IMG/VR virus record: IMGVR_UViG_3300031159_000040
Location: 1 to 32,894 of that record
DNA: 32,894 nt
Source of the DNA: a virus
Lineage: Duplodnaviria; Caudoviricetes
Direction: 5' to 3' (one strand)
The position numbers were made by a program, and so were the translations under genes. Position 1 is the stretch's first letter. Each line of letters begins with the position of its first letter. Below the pieces are notes generated by a model, which searched no databases, was not told where the DNA came from, and saw nothing but the letters and a program-made list of their open reading frames with translations. Below, piece by piece: positions 2,530-32,580 of the stretch.

Positions 2530-2986
2530 CAAAAAACGCTGCGTCATCTGTGGGACAGAGTTCCCTGCGCCGCCCAGCTCCAAAAAAGTCACATGCTCCG
2601 ATCCATGTCGGCGCGAAAGAGCGCGGCGTTCTGCAACCGGCAGAAAGCGTTTCTGGAGCGCGGAAAAGAAGGCCAGATATGCCGAGAAAGGACAGAACGC
2701 TAACCTCAAACTCGGCACTGCTGCAGCTTTAAAAAGCCCCATTGCCGGGCCATTTGAAACAAATCAAAACGCTTTGATCTGGACGATTCACTCCCCAGAT
2801 GGAGTTACATATACCGTACGTAACCTCAGCTTATGGCTGCGGGAAAACGCGGACAAGCTGCCCGGTACGCCGGAGCAGGCGCGAGCCGGTTTCGCACAAA
2901 TCAAGCGGAGCCGGGAAGGAAAAACAAAGCGATCAGTAGGGAGCTGGAAAGGCTGGACATTGATTAAATGGGAGCAGCCTAAATAA
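2504..2986 (+). CDS. Zinc-finger plus NUMOD-like DNA-binding protein
   Basis: CxxC...CxxxC N-terminus, C-terminal SPDG...KGWTL NUMOD1-like motif; RBS GGAGG. Confidence 0.65.
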   Translation: MLTKSKNGNKKRCVICGTEFPAPPSSKKVTCSDPCRRERARRSATGRKRFWSAEKKARYAEKGQNANLKLGTAAALKSPIAGPFETNQNALIWTIHSPDGVTYTVRNLSLWLRENADKLPGTPEQARAGFAQIKRSREGKTKRSVGSWKGWTLIKWEQPK

Positions 2987-2990
2987 AAAG

Positions 2991-3021
2991 AGCAGTGAGG
3001 GGATGCCTCCTGCTTTTTTTT
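2991..3021 (+). terminator. Intrinsic terminator
   Basis: AGCAGTGAGG/CCTCCTGCT stem plus T run. Confidence 0.8.
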
Positions 3022-3041
3022 ATAAAAATCTCCGGAATCCC

Positions 3042-3071
3042 ATTTACGTATCATTATTTACATGTTATTAT
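3042..3071 (+). promoter_or_regulatory. SigA promoter, second family (copy 1)
   Basis: TTTACG-17-TATTAT with TG; 27/30 identical to 4370-4399. Confidence 0.75.
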
Positions 3072-3109
3072 ATAGACATAGGAAGAGATAATCAAAGGAG
3101 CGGATCGAG

Positions 3110-3472
3110 ATGAAAAACGTTATGACGCGGGCTTGGGAAATCGCTAAGGCGGCAGCCAGCATTCACGGCGGCAAGGCATCGGAATACATCGCCGACGCGC
3201 TGCGCATGGCATGGGCAGAGTCCCGTCGTCCAAAGAGCGTAACGATTGAGTTACGCCGGCCGAACCGCAAATCCAAAACGTGGGTCGCCGCAATCGTCGG
3301 CACGCATCCGGTTTACAAGTTCGAGCGCAAGTTCATCAATCCGATCGCCTGGGGCGAAACGACGTGGGAACTGGCCGAAGGTGTATACGAGGTTTGCGAA
3401 AACGGCAATCGTTACTTTATCCGGGTCGCTGGTGGCGACTATCGCCGGATCGACGCGAAGGACGTGGCGTAA
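3110..3472 (+). CDS. Phage hypothetical protein (RAWEIAK...ALRMAW N-terminal module)
   Basis: 120 aa, RBS AAAGGAG. Confidence 0.8.
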   Translation: MKNVMTRAWEIAKAAASIHGGKASEYIADALRMAWAESRRPKSVTIELRRPNRKSKTWVAAIVGTHPVYKFERKFINPIAWGETTWELAEGVYEVCENGNRYFIRVAGGDYRRIDAKDVA

Positions 3473-4158
3473 TGGCACGCAAACAAGTCCATCCCGATCA
3501 GAGGTTTGATCGCCTGGTCGTCATCCGTGAGACCGAAACGCGGAAGGGCAAGCGATACGCGCTTTGTCGCTGCGAGTGTGGCACGGTGCGAGAGTTTGAC
3601 ATATACGGCCTCCTCTCTGGACACACCCGATCCTGCGGGTGCCTGGCGCGAGAAAAGCTTGAACTTGGTAGACAGGCAGCTGACTTGACCGATCAGACCT
3701 TTGGCCGGCTGACCGCGAGGCATCAAGACGGCCTGCGAAATGGGATCGTTGTTTGGGTATGTGAGTGTAAGTGCGGCAATGTCGTAGCTGTGCCAGCCCG
3801 CGATCTTGTCAGCGGGAATACGACATCCTGCGGCTGCGCCGTGAAAGACTTTGCGAAGTCTCTTAAACAACACAACGAGCAGCATCACACCATCGATGGC
3901 GTTTTCGCCCCGCTGCTCCGGCAAAAAATCCAAACCAACAACAAGACCGGAGTCAAAGGGGTATCAATTCAGCGGGACAAAAAGGGGCGAGTGAAATACG
4001 TCGCAAACATTACCGTCAACGGCAAGCGTATTTATCTCGGTATATACCCCACGATTGAGCAGGCCGCCGAAGCGCGGAAACGAGCCGAGGAACAATGTTA
4101 CACTCCCTATCTGGAGCGGTATGAGGAGGAGAAAAAACGTGACAAGAGACGAAATTAA
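3472..4158 (+). CDS. AP2-domain protein with two CxCxCG...SCGC zinc repeats
   Basis: FxRLxV...CxCxCG...SCGC twice; NNKTGVKGV...YLGIYPTIEQAAEAR AP2 motif; TAATG coupling. Confidence 0.85.
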   Translation: MARKQVHPDQRFDRLVVIRETETRKGKRYALCRCECGTVREFDIYGLLSGHTRSCGCLAREKLELGRQAADLTDQTFGRLTARHQDGLRNGIVVWVCECKCGNVVAVPARDLVSGNTTSCGCAVKDFAKSLKQHNEQHHTIDGVFAPLLRQKIQTNNKTGVKGVSIQRDKKGRVKYVANITVNGKRIYLGIYPTIEQAAEARKRAEEQCYTPYLERYEEEKKRDKRRN

Positions 4159-4351
4159 AAAATGGATACAAGACAACCTGGTCATGCAAGACGAAGCTCG
4201 GCGGATAACCGGACAATCGGTGTCTGGATTTAACCAGTCCGTTCAGACGGGGCGGATCATCCCGTTTGTGGAATTCGGAGATGCGCGCAAAACGCGCCTT
4301 TATCTCCGATCCGATTTGGAGGAGTACGCGAAAATCAAGAGAATCCGTTAA
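4139..4351 (+). CDS. Small excisionase/MerR-like winged HTH DNA-binding protein
   Basis: 70 aa from GTG with GAGGAG RBS; EARRITGQSVSGFNQSVQTGRI...RLYLRSDL. Confidence 0.7.
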   Translation: MTRDEIKKWIQDNLVMQDEARRITGQSVSGFNQSVQTGRIIPFVEFGDARKTRLYLRSDLEEYAKIKRIR

Positions 4352-4369
4352 CTTTTTTTGTCACACCCT

Positions 4370-4399
4370 ATTTACATATAATTATTTATATGTTATTAT
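4370..4399 (+). promoter_or_regulatory. SigA promoter, second family (copy 2)
   Basis: TTTACA-17-TATTAT with TG; near-palindrome ACATATAATTATTTATATGT. Confidence 0.8.
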
Positions 4400-4451
4400 T
4401 AAATCACAGCAGGGGACGACATACAAAATTAAATCAAAGGAGAGGTTGAAA

Positions 4452-4616
4452 ATGGCAAAAATCTACTACAAGGACATCCTGGTCGGAGAGGTAGTCACAA
4501 ACCGCAGCTTGACGGTGGATGAAGCGTTGGAGGTAATCGGATTTGACGAGCAAGCGTTTAACGCAGAGCACGGATTCGACGACATCGACTACAACGATTT
4601 TAAGCTTGTGTACTGA
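4452..4616 (+). CDS. 54-aa acidic hypothetical protein
   Basis: RBS AAAGGAGAGG; 12 D/E vs 4 K/R. Confidence 0.75.
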   Translation: MAKIYYKDILVGEVVTNRSLTVDEALEVIGFDEQAFNAEHGFDDIDYNDFKLVY

Positions 4617-4644
4617 GAGCGGAGGGGCTCCGGCCCCTCTCTCC

Positions 4645-4707
4645 CCCGCCTGATGATGGCCGGATGGTAACCGGCCGAAACGTCCACCCGAGCGTCGCGG
4701 GATACCC
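4645..4707 (+). ncRNA. Type I hammerhead ribozyme (HHR1), predicted cleavage after C4696
   Basis: Stem I CCCGC/GCGGG; core CUGAUGA; one extra U; stem II GGCCGG/CCGGCC; GAAA; stem III ACG/CGU; GUC cleavage triplet. Confidence 0.85.
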
Positions 4708-4730
4708 GCCACGAGTTGAAAACCGCATAC

Positions 4731-4770
4731 CGCATAAGCCCTCACCTTCGGGGAGGCAGCGGGGAAGGAG
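4731..4770 (+). repeat. UUCG hairpin + RBS leader element, copy 1
   Basis: CGCATAAG(C/T)CCTCACCTTCGGGGAGGC(A/G)GCG also at 5343-5373. Confidence 0.8.
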
Positions 4771-4778
4771 AATGAACC

Positions 4779-5321
4779 ATGAAACTCTCTCAATTGCTTG
4801 CCACTAAAAAGGTTGTCGCTTCTGGCTTTGCCGCTATTGCGGGATTATCCGCGTACTCGCGAGGCACGGAAGAGGTTGTCCTGTCGTCGCTGGCTCCGTC
4901 CATCTTGGCGGAACAAGGAGTAACGGAATACTATGCGCTGGAACTTCCGCGTGGGACAGTCTACAACACGTCGGAGGAGATTATCGCAGCCGATCCGGAC
5001 GTGCGTCGCTACACGATTCAGCCGGTTGCCAACGTGAGTGACCTGGATGTGGTGATTGTCTCCCGCCACGCAGGCACAGTAGCGCTCCTGCAAGACCGCT
5101 ATCCGGGCGCTCAGGTACTCGACTCCGTTACGCCGAACCAAATCGCCGGCAAACACGTCGTCGGCACGCTGCCGCCTCATCTTATCACCGCTGCTGGCGC
5201 GTACACCGCCGTTACGATTCGCGGGTTTGACTACGCCAAGGACGGGGACTTGGCGGGTCAGGAGTTGGCGGCGCGGATTGTCATCGCTGACAAGCCGCTC
5301 CGGGTCGTGGAGATTAACTAA
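4779..5321 (+). CDS. Csx16-like putative cyclic-oligoadenylate ring nuclease (tandem domains)
   Basis: C-terminal VIVSRHAG...IAGKHVVGTLPPHL...GQEL matches Csx16 (VVA1548) motifs; N-terminal half looks like a degenerate copy. Confidence 0.7.
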   Translation: MKLSQLLATKKVVASGFAAIAGLSAYSRGTEEVVLSSLAPSILAEQGVTEYYALELPRGTVYNTSEEIIAADPDVRRYTIQPVANVSDLDVVIVSRHAGTVALLQDRYPGAQVLDSVTPNQIAGKHVVGTLPPHLITAAGAYTAVTIRGFDYAKDGDLAGQELAARIVIADKPLRVVEIN

Positions 5322-5342
5322 CCATAGCGATACATAGCGATG

Positions 5343-5382
5343 CGCATAAGTCCTCACCTTCGGGGAGGCGGCGCGAAAGGAG
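5343..5382 (+). repeat. UUCG hairpin + RBS leader element, copy 2
   Basis: Near-identical to 4731-4770. Confidence 0.8.
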
Positions 5383-5390
5383 AAATGAAA

Positions 5391-6107
5391 ATGTTTAACA
5401 TTGATTTCGTCTATGACTCGACCAATCTGCCGAGTCAAACAGGTAAAGAAGGCATTCGGGCGGCTCTCCACTATTTAGATGCCGCGGACGGGCAAATTAA
5501 ATCGATTAAGGGCAAGATTGGCTATGGTCGGTATACCGCCGGTTACAGTCGGGATGGAGGATTTACTTCCAGATCGTACGGATTTTCTATGGCGCAGGAG
5601 GGTATCCTGCTCAGGTATTTTGACAACAGCAACAACGGGAGCTGGACCTGGTTTATCCCAGACGATCTCTCCGAGATAGAGGGCGTTCTCGTTTTTGCTT
5701 TTACAGCACATGGCAGGTCCATCGACTCATATGTCCAAAGTATTGACTACGGCTTGGTGTTAAAAATCAATACTGCGAACTACGGAGATCGGCATCCTTT
5801 AAATTTGATTTACGATTCTGTTAAATTTGACCAATATCGACCCGAGTTTAATCTCTTTGGAGATTATTTGGCTGTCCTTTTGCTGTCGCTTTTGGCCGAG
5901 TATAAGGACGCATTAGCGTATCCCTTTACTACCGGAGCATTGGAGGGTAAGACTTTGGGGTCTGCGCTGTATGACATTGCATCTCGTAGGCACTCAGCTT
6001 TTTTGGATGCAATGTTGTCCGGGGACATTAAAGTCGATCCCGCCCAACTTTTGAGGGGATCGAAGTACCTCGGGCGGGACCTGTATCCGCAATATTATTC
6101 GGCATAA
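5391..6107 (+). CDS. 238-aa hypothetical protein
   Basis: RBS AAAGGAG 8 nt upstream; no family recognised. Confidence 0.75.
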   Translation: MFNIDFVYDSTNLPSQTGKEGIRAALHYLDAADGQIKSIKGKIGYGRYTAGYSRDGGFTSRSYGFSMAQEGILLRYFDNSNNGSWTWFIPDDLSEIEGVLVFAFTAHGRSIDSYVQSIDYGLVLKINTANYGDRHPLNLIYDSVKFDQYRPEFNLFGDYLAVLLLSLLAEYKDALAYPFTTGALEGKTLGSALYDIASRRHSAFLDAMLSGDIKVDPAQLLRGSKYLGRDLYPQYYSA

Positions 6108-6201
6108 ATGACAAGAGCCCCCTTACGGGGGCCATGTCGTGTAGGAACAAGGTTGTTTTAATCAACGCCTCGCTCGTGGCGGGCGACAAGGCCGAAGCCT
6201 T
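6108..6201 (-). ncRNA. Solitary type I-C-like CRISPR repeat RNA (Racr/crRNA-like candidate)
   Basis: 5' UUCG hairpin, repeat GTCGCCCGCCACGAGCGAGGCGTTGATTAAAAC (6187-6155), ~22-nt spacer-like segment, GCCCCC-GTAA-GGGGGC hairpin. Confidence 0.7.
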
Positions 6202-6236
6202 ATCTGTATAATATACAGATACCCAAAACTTGTCAA
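6201..6236 (-). promoter_or_regulatory. Near-consensus SigA promoter with operator for the repeat RNA
   Basis: TTGACA(6236-6231)-17-TATTAT(6213-6208); inverted repeat TATCTGTAT-AAT-ATACAGATA (6201-6221) over the -10. Confidence 0.8.
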
Positions 6237-6325
6237 CCCACCTGACGAGCGCGCAAGCGCCTTGGGACCGCTGGGTACGGTCCGAAACCGCCGCGTCGAG
6301 ATGACGCCGCGGTCGCGGGATACCA
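6237..6325 (+). ncRNA. Type I hammerhead ribozyme variant (HHR2), predicted cleavage after C6314
   Basis: Core CUGACGA; inserted GCGC-GCAA-GCGC hairpin; stem II GGACCG/CGGUCC; GAAA; stem III ACCGC/GCGGU; GUC; stem I CCCAC/GCGGG with one A-C mismatch. Confidence 0.75.
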
Positions 6326-6455
6326 GCCACGAGCTGGCCCGGCCGGGCTGGCCTTTATATAGATTGTTCTTTGAAAATAAAACAGGACTCGTCAAAATCC
6401 GATATATATTGTAACATGTGGAATAGAATTTATTCCTACAATTGGGGGAATTGGA

Positions 6456-6956
6456 ATGAAAAAATCTTTAATCGCTGGCGCAATTGTTGCCGCGCTCCTT
6501 GCCGGATGCTCGGCAGAGACTGATAGTCTTAAGCCTGCTAGTGTACCGGCATCGGTAAGCCCAGTTCCTGCAATCGAAGCGCCCGAGTCGACGACTGCGC
6601 AGGAAGTGGCTCAAGAAACGGCGAAGCCTACAAATACGGAGAAGAATGTGCCTAGAGAATATACGGCAGCATTAAAAAAAGCGGAAATGTACGCTGAGTC
6701 TATGAGTATGTCAAAGGCTGCTATTTATGATCAACTGACCTCTGAATATGGAGAAAATTTTCCGAAAGAAGCCGCTCAATATGCCATTGATAACATCACT
6801 TTTGATTGGAAAGAAAATGCATTAAAAAAAGCAAAATTGTATGCGGAATCTATGAATATGTCAGATTCTGCTATTTATGATCAACTGACCTCTGAATATG
6901 GAGAAAAATTCACCAAAGAGGAAGCACAATATGCGATAGATCATTTAGAAAAATAG
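6456..6956 (+). CDS. ltp: Ltp-family surface lipoprotein (superinfection exclusion)
   Basis: Lipobox LAGC; two 50-aa repeats A/NALKKA..YAESM.MS..AIYDQLTSEYGE.F.KE.AQYAID. Confidence 0.9.
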   Translation: MKKSLIAGAIVAALLAGCSAETDSLKPASVPASVSPVPAIEAPESTTAQEVAQETAKPTNTEKNVPREYTAALKKAEMYAESMSMSKAAIYDQLTSEYGENFPKEAAQYAIDNITFDWKENALKKAKLYAESMNMSDSAIYDQLTSEYGEKFTKEEAQYAIDHLEK

Positions 6957-6987
6957 TATTTGGTACTGATACGTAAAGCTAAATAGC

Positions 6988-7021
6988 AATCAGCCCGAGA
7001 GCCGAAGCCCTCGGGCTGATT
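6988..7021. terminator. Hairpin between convergent ltp and endolysin genes
   Basis: AATCAGCCCGAG/CTCGGGCTGATT 12-bp stem. Confidence 0.7.
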
Positions 7022-7022
7022 C

Positions 7023-7919
7023 TCATTTGTACAAGAACACCTTTTTAACATCACCGTTCCAGCTCACACGTGCCCCCAGCAACTCAGCAGCCGCCCGTAC
7101 GCCGACGTAAGTCACCCCGTCGATGATCTCGAACACGTCCACGACCTTGCCGTCCACGTATGGCAGCTTGGACTCATTATCCCAGTGGACCACCTTGCCG
7201 AGCGCCTCCCCGAGCTGTCGCAGCGGCAAATAGACGTGGCCGTCAATCGCTCGACCGTAGCCTGCCAGCTTGTCGTTGACGACGACCTTGATGGTATCCT
7301 TTTCGTTGGGTTGCGGTCCGGCCACCGGTGCCGGGTTCGTGTTCCACCAGCCTTCGCCGCCATACGATTCGTTCAGATCGACCGTCGCGCCGGCCAAGCT
7401 GACGCCGTTTTGATGCTGCCAGATGTTTGCGCGCGCCGACTTCCTGCCCCGGCTCCAGGCGTAGGTCTGCCAGAAATGCTTGGCGGCGCCGCGCCGGGCC
7501 ATTTCCTCAATGACGGCATACGAGCCGTAAACGCCGACCCGATAGCCGGGGATCGCGGACGACGCGGCGCGCAGGTATGCCTCAATCGCGTCGTAGTCCT
7601 TGGGCTGCGCGTCGTAGTCCACGGCAAAATAGATGGCCGTACCAAGAGGTTGTCCGATAGCGATAGCCTCTTTGAGGGCTTCGGCGCCGTCTACGATCCC
7701 AGCAGCGCCACCCCCCGCTGGTCGATTGGCGGTCGTCTCGAACACGCTGACAATCTGCATCCCGGCGGCCGTGATGGCCTCCGCCTCGCCCCTCGTCAGC
7801 CGCTTCCAGGCATAGCGCTCCGGCACCAGATACCGCGCCGCGAAGGCGTAGCCGGCTGCGGCAATCGCTTTGGCCGTACTGGCGGTCAGCGGAATCGCGC
7901 AATCGATGCCTTTAGCCAT
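7023..7919 (-). CDS. Endolysin, DUF1906/GH25-like glycoside hydrolase with C-terminal copper-amine-oxidase-N-like binding domain
   Basis: GIDC, ARYL, IYFAVDYD, GVYGS, WQTYAWS motifs; YLPLRQLGEALG..VHWD C-domain. Confidence 0.88.
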   Translation of the reverse strand: MAKGIDCAIPLTASTAKAIAAAGYAFAARYLVPERYAWKRLTRGEAEAITAAGMQIVSVFETTANRPAGGGAAGIVDGAEALKEAIAIGQPLGTAIYFAVDYDAQPKDYDAIEAYLRAASSAIPGYRVGVYGSYAVIEEMARRGAAKHFWQTYAWSRGRKSARANIWQHQNGVSLAGATVDLNESYGGEGWWNTNPAPVAGPQPNEKDTIKVVVNDKLAGYGRAIDGHVYLPLRQLGEALGKVVHWDNESKLPYVDGKVVDVFEIIDGVTYVGVRAAAELLGARVSWNGDVKKVFLYK

Positions 7920-32198: not shown

Positions 32199-32580
32199 GT
32201 AAGACGTCGCACGCAGTCATCAAATGGGGCCCTCCCTGCACCCCGCGGCGACGGTCGGCTCACCATTTGAAAGACGCGGGAGCCTACGCGCCGAACGCAT
32301 CTTTAGCCGGGCGTCCTACGGCATCGCAATATGCTGCGCGCCGGTCCGGTCGGCGCACATAGAGGATTTGCACCCTCTTTACCACGTCGGATCGTTCCAG
32401 TCCGGCGCAGAAAAGAAGGGACAAAGCCCTTCATGGGGTCTCGAACCCCGCCCCATCTCCACACGCTCGGCGACTCGCGCCTAAGGCCCAGCCGATTTCG
32501 GCTCACCCACCGCATGGCCGGGTGCCGCAAACGATAAGGGGTACAGCGGCAATCACCCGAGCATTAAGCTCTATGTGATT
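32152..32580 (-). ncRNA. Long structured late-leader RNA candidate
   Basis: GC-rich non-coding stretch with many hairpins, two T-loop-like hairpins and two terminators. Confidence 0.45.

Follow-up and report, generated by a model that had tools for sequence, protein, structure and literature searches.

What are two hammerhead ribozymes doing on either side of two phage genes, one of which encodes a Csx16-like protein? An earlier note had proposed that the RNA between them is excised and circularised, or that a circle bearing the cargo had integrated into a hammerhead already in place. The window (the whole 32,894-nt stretch of DNA analysed, along which the cassette coordinates are counted) contains phage structural genes according to Pfam and PHROG searches of its ORFs. 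With a probability of roughly 0.6, we read the locus as an accessory operon of mosaic make-up in a tailed phage of Paenibacillaceae type, whose hammerheads would cut its transcript into linear pieces and whose convergent repeat RNA would act as an RNA anti-CRISPR. The ribozyme motifs, the repeat gene and the module boundaries are read from the sequence itself, and the features are as follows:

4371..4399, plus strand: predicted sigma-A-type promoter of the accessory transcript (10/12 consensus matches, with TG)
4452..4616, plus strand: 54-aa ORF upstream of HHR1, the same ORF being present in the related loci L133, L134, L163 and L171
4645..4709, plus strand: HHR1, a type I hammerhead, predicted to cut after 4696
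4731..4772, plus strand: leader repeat, copy 1 (42 nt; hairpin and Shine-Dalgarno sequence; 90% identity to 5343-5384)
4779..5321, plus strand: protein of 180 aa whose C-terminal domain is Csx16-like (PF09652, E 4.2e-5; 24.1 bits, below the 25-bit cut-off)
5343..5384, plus strand: leader repeat, copy 2
5391..6107, plus strand: 238-aa ORF, function unassigned, 5 homologues
6108..6141, minus strand: intrinsic terminator predicted for the small minus-strand RNA (terminator-like site 6133-6116)
6155..6187, minus strand: solitary degenerate type I-C CRISPR repeat, a candidate RNA anti-CRISPR (predicted fold and host-family I-C model)
6208..6236, minus strand: predicted sigma-A promoter pointing at the repeat, TTGACA-17-TATTAT (11/12 matches; best of 9 sites in 2900-7100)
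6237..6327, plus strand: HHR2, a type I hammerhead variant, predicted to cut after 6314
6333..6372, plus strand: terminator-like hairpin with a T-rich tail, typical of 'terminal' members of the hammerhead family
6456..6956, plus strand: gene for an Ltp-type superinfection-exclusion lipoprotein, belonging to the HHR2 module (PF07553, E 7e-50; phrog_4980, E 9e-55)

The region of the plus-strand promoter is repeated at 3039-3088, and the 54-aa ORF, which found no match in Pfam or PHROG searches, is followed by a predicted hairpin at about 4617-4644. HHR1 consists of stem I (4645-4649/4697-4701), CUGAUGA at 4650, a 6-bp stem II closed by the loop AUGGUAA, GAAA, stem III and GUC, with one extra U after A9 that is common to most family members; its core is identical in L133, L154 and L184. 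HHR2 has CUGACGA at 6242, a 6-bp stem II and the loop CUGGGUA, together with a 15-nt insert that adds a 4-bp hairpin after A9, ahead of stem II, and recurs in L250, L274 and L279. Both thus have the CUGANGA and GAAA core, the NUH site and the three stems of type I, with stem I open in HHR1. The Rfam hammerhead models gave no match at E<=1 in the window or in six related loci, so the library misses this whole hammerhead family, and we identify the ribozymes by their core consensus and their homologues; judged by these, both are real type I hammerheads with predicted cleavage sites. The pattern of the core followed by GUC^GCGGG occurs in an estimated 770 or so IMG/VR stretches, many with tandem copies, and in 31/401 Paenibacillales genomes, counts in which related sequences are included and for which the search pattern itself prescribed the 5′ arm of the hairpin discussed below. 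The basic sequence facts of the earlier note, namely the two hammerheads, their cut positions, the 1618-nt spacing between predicted cuts and the shared 23/25-nt repeat (4694-4718 and 6312-6336), all hold. It had overlooked the A.C mismatch in HHR2 stem I, the 15-nt insert and the position of 6172-6183 inside a minus-strand CRISPR-repeat unit. A further possibility, that HHR2 is a chimera or a decayed insert, was rejected, the insert being conserved and, in L279, accompanied by the terminal tail. Weinberg et al. (Nat Chem Biol, 2015) reportedly described hammerheads that have gained a stem, so the HHR2 variant may already be known.

Comparison of alleles indicates that the two ribozymes of the window belong to separate modules. 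In close relatives HHR1 is present, next to the same cargo or another, and HHR2 is missing: L134 has the same genes as the window, and L133, a complete provirus with one core, has a different cargo gene. The sequence shared with both stops at 6188, not at 6314, and the 6188 boundary also appears as loose contig ends in 4/8 sequencing runs. The Ltp-type gene is absent from the corresponding site in L133, L134 and L163. HHR2-type cores are natively joined to the terminal tail in L279, and the layout downstream of HHR2 at 6333..6372, containing a motif that we take to be boxA-like, is the same in L163, L273, L279 and others. The leader repeat precedes the different cargo gene of L133 as well as genes in L233 and L235. 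A different core sits between identical flanks in L171, so ribozyme parts do recombine. The search for alternative-cargo and empty-site alleles that had been suggested for this locus was only partly rewarded: L133 supplies other cargo and L163 a single-ribozyme allele in which an HHR1-like core is joined to an HHR2-like downstream flank (as also in the Paenibacillales loci L256, L269 and L271-L273), but L163 has an extra 92-aa gene upstream, a different stem III and no ltp downstream, and so is not a clean empty site.

Turning to the cargo, the 180-aa protein is a candidate cA4 ring nuclease directed against type III CRISPR. PF09652 was matched at E<=0.01 by 38/40 of its aligned homologues (best 5.6e-8), the Csx16 match being absent from NCBIfam. 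A Csx16 ring nuclease would be expected to have a CARF-like Rossmann fold resembling Crn1 and Crn2. The predicted model of the 180-aa protein is confident (pLDDT 94) and yielded no Foldseek match at E<=0.001; the best hit of the fold search (Z 5.0, rmsd 3.5, 75 aligned) was among generic Rossmann-like matches over residues 84-174, no ring nuclease was named by the fold searches, and a PDB sequence search was empty. The N-terminal half is possibly a duplicated second copy of the fold (hhalign of the two halves, E 0.0022, probability 13%). No homologue was found by protein search in 136 family genomes. We discarded the idea that this gene is always ribozyme-flanked, given that a hammerhead is absent in 6/6 more distant loci (L127-L129, L131, L198 and L199). 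The 238-aa ORF had no match in Pfam or PHROG, and its Atlas matches are unnamed (best 0.91).

The segment 6172-6183, to which end-pairing had been ascribed, is the opposite strand of the solitary I-C repeat. We built a repeat model from host-family I-C arrays (Cas8c in 5/5 genomes tested), against which the window copy scored 10.5 bits (E 3.6, non-significant alone and tied with a spurious hit), L133 19.4 bits (E 0.021) and L235 28.1 bits (E 1.6e-4). The window copy has a 7-bp stem with one bulged A and an 11-nt handle with two changes. As in Racr genes, a single I-C-like repeat lies outside an array, an assignment that draws on four homologous genes whose aligned sequences contain no two-sided covariation, and a promoter is predicted within 250 bp upstream. 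TTGACA, a 17-nt spacer and a -10-like box are kept in 4/4 loci despite different spacer sequences, and the terminator hairpin has homologues in L133, L134 and L235. The repeat gene, promoter and terminator occur together in 4 loci, one of them without any hammerhead core in a record that is 59% complete. I-C repeats occur in 50/136 genomes of the putative host family. In one run, the last part of the Csx16-like gene is joined within a contig to an I-C repeat; we interpret this as a spacer whose flank is TTA, one probable I-C spacer against this phage group. The predicted anti-CRISPR role once attributed to the region is plausible and has gained evidence.

The minus-strand RNA is likely an anti-CRISPR decoy. 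The most serious competitor, which we nonetheless hold to be rather doubtful, is that it serves as a short guide (one of Cracr type that represses a host cas promoter, or one directed against rival phages) or is a decayed remnant in this phage. A repeat followed by about 20 nt and a terminator is the layout of viral crlRNAs (10.1101/2024.10.29.618823), and processing of the window copy could be lost through its two altered handle positions. The sequence that follows the handle, however, varies between alleles, and the promoter is retained across different upstream modules. No target of the post-handle segment stood above chance in 401 genomes, the window or the related loci: PAM plus seed matched 56 places in the 401 genomes versus about 70 for a reversed-pattern control. 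A Cracr would have at least 9 PAM-proximal matches to a host cas or creT promoter; these matches, counted wherever they fell in the 401 genomes, were at control level.

As to the ribozymes, each loop II can form a pseudoknot in cis with its own tail (in HHR1, loop GGUA with tail +7..+10). The 4-bp length noted earlier for each is correct and nothing unusual, 4 bp being the family median; across 105 distinct loop/tail sets the own-tail mean is 3.70 versus 2.95 with shuffled partners (max 3.24, 2000 shuffles), and a first pass with cruder loop calling pointed in the same direction (3.46 versus 2.90, 91 sets). It is unlikely, in our estimate, that only HHR1 works, HHR2 being slowed or decaying and A6325 representing drift or a local change that spares the HHR2 pseudoknot from the repeat-antisense segment. 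Such a reading would fit the A.C mismatch in stem I, at a position that is paired in L250, L274 and L279, the weakened product hairpin (-3.0 vs -7.8 kcal/mol) and the predicted pairing of 6172-6180 with HHR2's own tail (p 0.87). Yet the catalytic core is intact, the insert is a conserved variant, A6325 gives a second 4-bp cis register with the loop and L149 has the same stem I mismatch.

We instead favour the reading in which cleavage by the ribozymes probably yields a protected RNA that is linear, not circular. HHR1 would cleave co-transcriptionally via its own 4-bp pseudoknot, and its freed tail would refold into a 5-bp hairpin (4697-4709) at the new 5′-OH end of the 3′ product, which may both prevent the ends from being joined again and protect the mRNA of the cargo against RNase J1. 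A hairpin of at least 4 bp starting at nt +1 can be folded in 106/125 family tails (shuffles: mean 26.9, max 39; 500 shuffles), and in L034, L048 and L057 stem I and both hairpin arms change together; formed after cutting, such a hairpin would hinder re-ligation. RNase J1 degrades the 5′-OH glmS product, and hairpins downstream stabilise cleaved RNA (PMC11780869). Counting against the hairpin, equilibrium folding of the excised RNA gave it p 0.02 and preferred the long-range helix 4705-4715:6173-6183 (p 0.95 at 37 C, 0.64 at 55 C). HHR2 would have been acquired independently, together with the ltp module, and may, provided that it is active, trim the 3′ end immediately upstream of the terminator. 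Cas5d processing is a known step of type I-C systems; host Cas5d would cleave the repeat RNA, which would then sequester Cascade subunits.

The same helix speaks for a circle. Two hammerheads do bracket two genes, so an RNA of 4697-6314 with 5′-OH and 2′,3′-cyclic phosphate ends would be releasable if both cut; host RtcB might then seal a natural circular 1618-nt anti-CRISPR mRNA, in which the repeat-antisense, rewritten to pair with the 5′ ribozyme tail, splints the ends. We regard this as improbable. In its favour, the end chemistry is established as compatible, RtcB occurs in 96/151 Paenibacillales genomes, and 6173-6183 is indeed an 11-bp Watson-Crick complement of 4705-4715, as the earlier note had nearly exactly stated, matched in just 19/3000 dinucleotide shuffles of the cassette. 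This lineage's repeat also shares 11 nt with the HHR tail, which the L235 homologue does not. Against this, the helix segment is kept in the HHR2-less L134 and mismatched in L133, and a strong predicted convergent promoter lies inside the would-be circle. The loop-tail duplexes are -3.8 (HHR1) and -5.4 kcal/mol (HHR2) in cis and -7.1 (core 2 with tail 1) and -5.4 kcal/mol (core 1 with tail 2) in the hybrids, making the junction pseudoknot 1.7 kcal/mol stronger than HHR2's own; the proposed 'optimal' junction ribozyme would nevertheless retain the HHR2 stem I mismatch. The tails differ at +11 and +20 only over their first 22 nt, and the supposed swap of pseudoknot partners comes down to one base (C4707/A6325). 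Nor is it a family trait: 0/22 other informative tandem pairs (26 adjacent pairs minus the window's own and 3 with identical tails) pair better in both swapped directions, the circle-junction pseudoknot being better in 3, equal in 12 and worse in 7. Stem I at the junction was worse in 7, equal in 17 and better in 1 of 25 pairs, a comparison biased by a hammerhead finder that demands a ribozyme's own stem I. No 6314-to-4697 or 4696-to-6315 joint was present in contigs of 8/24 listed runs, in which the only RNA run, X24, contained HHR2-less alleles only and contigs cannot show absence.

Integration of a circular cargo into a pre-existing hammerhead, by which the 25-nt repeat would have been duplicated, is very improbable: alleles resembling an empty site (L163, L256, L269 and L271-L273, with HHR1-like core and HHR2-like flank), variable cargo (L133) and recombining ribozyme parts (L171) would suit such a ribozyme-targeted mobile cassette, but the HHR2 core does not travel with the cargo in L133 or L134, breakpoints fall at the leader repeat and 6188, L279 has the HHR2-type core native to the terminal tail, L163 is not clean, and the window ORFs had no reverse transcriptase match in Pfam or PHROG. 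On present comparisons, the circle and mobile-cassette readings are both poorly supported.

What hammerheads do in bacteria and phages has yet to be settled (PMC6765202, PMC6155905). The family suggests a testable design in which the tail would first form the activating pseudoknot and later the product 5′ hairpin, predicting mRNA protection in hosts with RNase J1, with the natural alleles of the locus serving as controls. Three possible counter-defence layers adjoin here: a candidate type III ring nuclease, a candidate I-C RNA decoy and superinfection exclusion. A natural phage circular mRNA would, if true, be far more surprising, one DNA stretch specifying an RNA anti-CRISPR on one strand and, on the other, a splint for circularisation; the comparisons speak against it.

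Among known systems, retrozymes and viroid-like RNAs (PMC6155905, PMC6765202) likewise have two hammerheads in direct repeats and potentially ligatable ends. In contrast to their long terminal repeats with the same hammerhead, moving as a unit, the repeat here measures no more than 25 nt, the two cores differ from each other, what lies between them is phage DNA that codes for proteins, HHR2 is missing in L133 and L134, and no circle or mobility was seen. Csx16 degrades cA4, and two phage genomes are reported to encode it (Hoikkala et al., 2025, PMC12409355); our protein shares its PF09652 match in the C-terminal domain but is 180 aa long with an extra N-terminal half, a score below cut-off and a predicted activity. 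Like RacrIC1 (Camara-Wilpert et al., 2023, PMC10651486), the repeat gene is a single I-C repeat mimic with a predicted promoter and an adjoining candidate anti-CRISPR gene; unlike it, it is a convergent stand-alone gene with its own terminator, not co-transcribed with an acr, its copy in the window is degenerate with predicted activity, and its neighbour would be aimed at type III signalling rather than I-C. We found no description of phage hammerhead circles, hammerheads with anti-defence genes or the extra-hairpin variant beyond PMC3088659, and no motif match in its 11 supplementary text files, whose gapped alignments could hide matches. The claim that no phage system of either kind had been described does not stand: gene-flanking prophage hammerheads and the circle idea were already published in 2011 (Perreault et al., 2011, PMC3088659), section 6 of which raises circular products, none being detected for such arrangements, and describes clusters flanking prophage genes, with mRNA processing proposed and one cluster flanking the anti-restriction gene ardA. 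Like those clusters, this locus has type I hammerheads with a loop II-tail pseudoknot around a short block of variable phage genes, amid phage structural genes. It differs in that HHR2 has an extra hairpin in the core region and the two ribozymes come from separate modules, and the 5′ hairpin that the family's tails would fold after cleavage is absent from the available text of PMC3088659.

The features of the locus are real, and on sequence comparison they are best read as a modular counter-defence operon whose transcript is processed by ribozymes and which includes a type I-C repeat RNA that had been overlooked. Gene content and profile matches mark the window as a tailed phage or prophage fragment, with the following features (the first two from gene calls and profile matches, the third with its fold):

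~30 kb down to 7 kb, minus strand: terminase, portal, capsid, tail and endolysin genes
1.4 to 7 kb, plus strand: small accessory genes
6155-6187, minus strand: solitary type I-C-type repeat, with GU, a 7-bp stem, a 5-nt loop and an 11-nt handle

Matches to proteins of Cohnella (81%) and Paenibacillus (72%) suggest a host of the Paenibacillaceae type, and a 243-kb contig (L166) carries the same two-ribozyme allele at 99.99% identity. Promoter-like repeat pairs (1408-1439/2090-2121 and 3039-3088/4367-4416) head small accessory gene units, and an epsC RNA motif (Rfam RF01735, 67.5 bits, above gathering) lies at 32435-32558 on the minus strand, upstream of the late gene region. Exchangeable accessory genes are preceded by a 42-nt hairpin-plus-Shine-Dalgarno leader repeat (window 4731-4772 and 5343-5384; related loci L133, L233 and L235), which occurs also without a hammerhead nearby and may be a recombination or translation module.

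Two accessory genes are bracketed by the plus-strand hammerheads HHR1 and HHR2. Both cores that the earlier note reported were recovered (cleavage predicted just 3' of 4696 and of 6314), as were the shared 23/25-nt repeat around the cuts (spacing 1618 nt) and the loop-tail complementarities of both ribozymes; an Rfam search of the window detected neither. The swapped complementarity pattern stems from a single base difference, C4707 versus A6325. In cis the loop-tail duplex energy is -3.8 for HHR1 and -5.4 kcal/mol for HHR2; joining core 2 to tail 1 gives -7.1 and joining core 1 to tail 2 gives -5.4 kcal/mol, and any hybrid keeps the A.C mismatch of HHR2 stem I. The family pattern, core plus GUC^GCGGG, matched at least 126 stretches in IMG/VR (estimated total about 770) and 31/401 Paenibacillales genomes, some by chance; a fold finder recovered many true type I folds among the matches, often in tandem. 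Pseudoknots with the own tail, measured across 105 distinct loop/tail sets, have a median of 4 and a mean of 3.70 Watson-Crick pairs (shuffled partners 2.95, maximum 3.24 in 2000), and loop and tail covary (GGC/GCC, GGGA/UCCC, GGU/ACC); since the median is 4, 4 bp in cis is normal. From 26 adjacent tandem pairs we removed the window's own and three whose tails are identical. Of the 22 left, 3 had a better circle junction, 12 an equal one and 7 a worse one, and none was better in both swapped directions (some family sequences are related to each other, and the counts therefore do not represent independent events). The proposal of swapped pseudoknot partners, having a one-base basis, is thus not supported by the family.

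HHR2 contains a 15-nt insert between A9 and stem II, formed of a 4-bp hairpin with a variable loop and a 4-nt linker. Inserts of this type recur in three type I (L250, L274, L279) and two type III-like folds (L278, L280), and Rfam missed the four of these scanned. L279 combines the insert with the tail of 'terminal' members, so a chimeric origin is not required for HHR2. A 2015 study reportedly described hammerheads that carry an additional stem; our literature search, incomplete in coverage, found no description of the extra-hairpin variant. In 'terminal' members (window 6333-6372; L135, L141, L163, L273 and others) the last gene is followed by the ribozyme, a hairpin, a T-rich run and a motif that we take to be boxA-like; the HHR1 tail resembles this layout minus its hairpin. 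A palindrome at 6201-6219 holds overlapping -10 boxes of a minus-strand promoter and a possible plus-strand promoter (6183-6212), and HHR2 may therefore be made as a separate short transcript as well.

A tail hairpin of at least four pairs starting at the first base past the cut can form in 106 of 125 distinct family members, versus a mean of 26.9 and at most 39 in 500 shuffles of bases +7 to +18 (the family pattern fixed the 5' arm and left the 3' arm free). In L034, L048 and L057 stem I and both hairpin arms changed together, probably in one event. The hairpin (-7.8 kcal/mol for tail 1, -3.0 for tail 2) would sequester the strand required for re-ligation. According to PMC11780869, in B. subtilis RNase J1 degrades the 5'-OH RNA that glmS ribozyme cleavage leaves, and cleaved RNAs gain stability from hairpins further downstream; by analogy, the hairpin's purpose is therefore likely protection of the cleaved RNA. 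An incomplete literature survey returned no paper on a hammerhead product hairpin.

The region's best promoter-like site (11/12 consensus matches) is aimed at the solitary repeat, and a terminator-like hairpin lies downstream of it. With a covariance model of 24 type I-C array repeats of the host family, the window copy, possibly a decayed one, scores 10.5 bits (E 3.6, by itself not significant), the L133 copy 19.4 bits (E 0.021) and the homologous L235 gene 28.1 bits (E 1.6e-4). Four repeat genes are alignable over promoter, repeat and terminator: all have TTGACA, a 17-nt spacer and a -10-like box despite differing spacer sequences, and all 28 stem cells are paired, with no two-sided change among them. 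A loose end in sequencing run X8 shows one further such promoter. The L235 record (59% complete) has the gene and no hammerhead core, so the repeat gene is independent of the ribozymes. The predicted RNA matches the Racr concept (RNA anti-CRISPR from a solitary repeat) set out in PMC10651486. Alternatively, it may be a short guide of the Cracr type (10.1101/2024.10.29.618823); its post-handle segment gave no target above control level. Solitary type I-C repeats also lie between or inside genes of five viral contigs (L238, L239, L240, L243, L247; one phage has two per genome) and immediately ahead of apparent chromosomal genes at five loci of Paenibacillales genomes (L203, L211, L212, L221, L224).

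Of the two cargo proteins, the 180-aa one matches PF09652 at its C-terminus with a score slightly below the cut-off, and 38/40 of its homologues match PF09652 at E<=0.01; its structure model (pLDDT 94) drew no named match in structure searches, and evidence for an internal repeat is weak. Csx16 is a cA4 ring nuclease present in two phage genomes (PMC12409355), and the Csx16-like protein likely has an anti-type III role. Six more distant loci have the Csx16-like gene and no hammerhead. In run X14 a contig leaves the window at 5318 and enters a reversed I-C repeat; TTA flanks it on the phage side (30/96 letters seen), and, most simply, the join is probably a host spacer against the end of this gene. 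Homologue searches named no function for the 238-aa protein.

Natural alleles delimit the modules. L134 keeps HHR1, the two genes and the segment 6102-6188 but has no HHR2. In L133, a complete provirus with a single hammerhead core match, HHR1 is identical and the same segment is there, the gene is another one of 225 aa, and HHR2 is again missing; L133 is an allele with alternative cargo. Sequence shared with the window stops at 6188 in both, and 4/8 runs searched have loose ends there, so HHR2 and the lipoprotein gene ltp form a separate module. Past the repeat gene of L133 and L134 other genes replace HHR2-ltp, including ORFs whose translations read as ligase-like and toxin-antitoxin-like and, in L133, a small acid-soluble spore protein gene (PF00269). 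At L171 2780-2840 flanks identical to HHR1's enclose a different core, which suggests exchange of cores by recombination. Contigs of runs X17 and X18 join the HHR2 tail at 6314 to an upstream sequence in which no hammerhead cleavage triplet is apparent.

Circularisation of the 4697-6314 RNA is possible but improbable. In its favour, the 11-nt complement between 6172-6183 and the ribozyme tail is uncommon (19/3000 shuffles), and equilibrium folding of the excised RNA, which disregards ribosomes and pseudoknots, gives this helix p 0.95 at 37 C and 0.64 at 55 C, ousting the 5' hairpin. The end-pairing proposed earlier is thus predicted. Its segment lies in the minus-strand I-C repeat unit; the 11 nt common to repeat and tail occur in the window lineage, not in L235, and are unexplained. 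RtcB is encoded in 96/151 genomes of the order Paenibacillales, and a terminator scan of the window allele called no plus-strand terminator at 6108-6141, which makes read-through to HHR2 plausible. Against it stand the tandem-pair counts. No 6314-4697 back-joint was seen in contigs of eight runs, a weak test limited to contigs, with HHR2-less alleles in the RNA run. Insertion of the cargo as a circle into a resident hammerhead is still less likely; the empty site sought for it appears in part in L163, a single ribozyme whose HHR1-like core, with C at +11, and HHR2-like downstream flank are as predicted, but which differs upstream, in stem III and downstream.

We found no hammerhead-Racr-Csx16 locus in the literature, incompletely covered, and the role of bacterial hammerheads is described as an open question in PMC6765202 and PMC6155905. 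That no such phage system had been described is contradicted by PMC3088659, which shows tandem cleavage in vitro for prophage hammerheads, proposes mRNA processing, and raises spliced or circular products, none detected. In those prophage clusters multiple hammerheads flank genes, as HHR1 and HHR2 do in the window.
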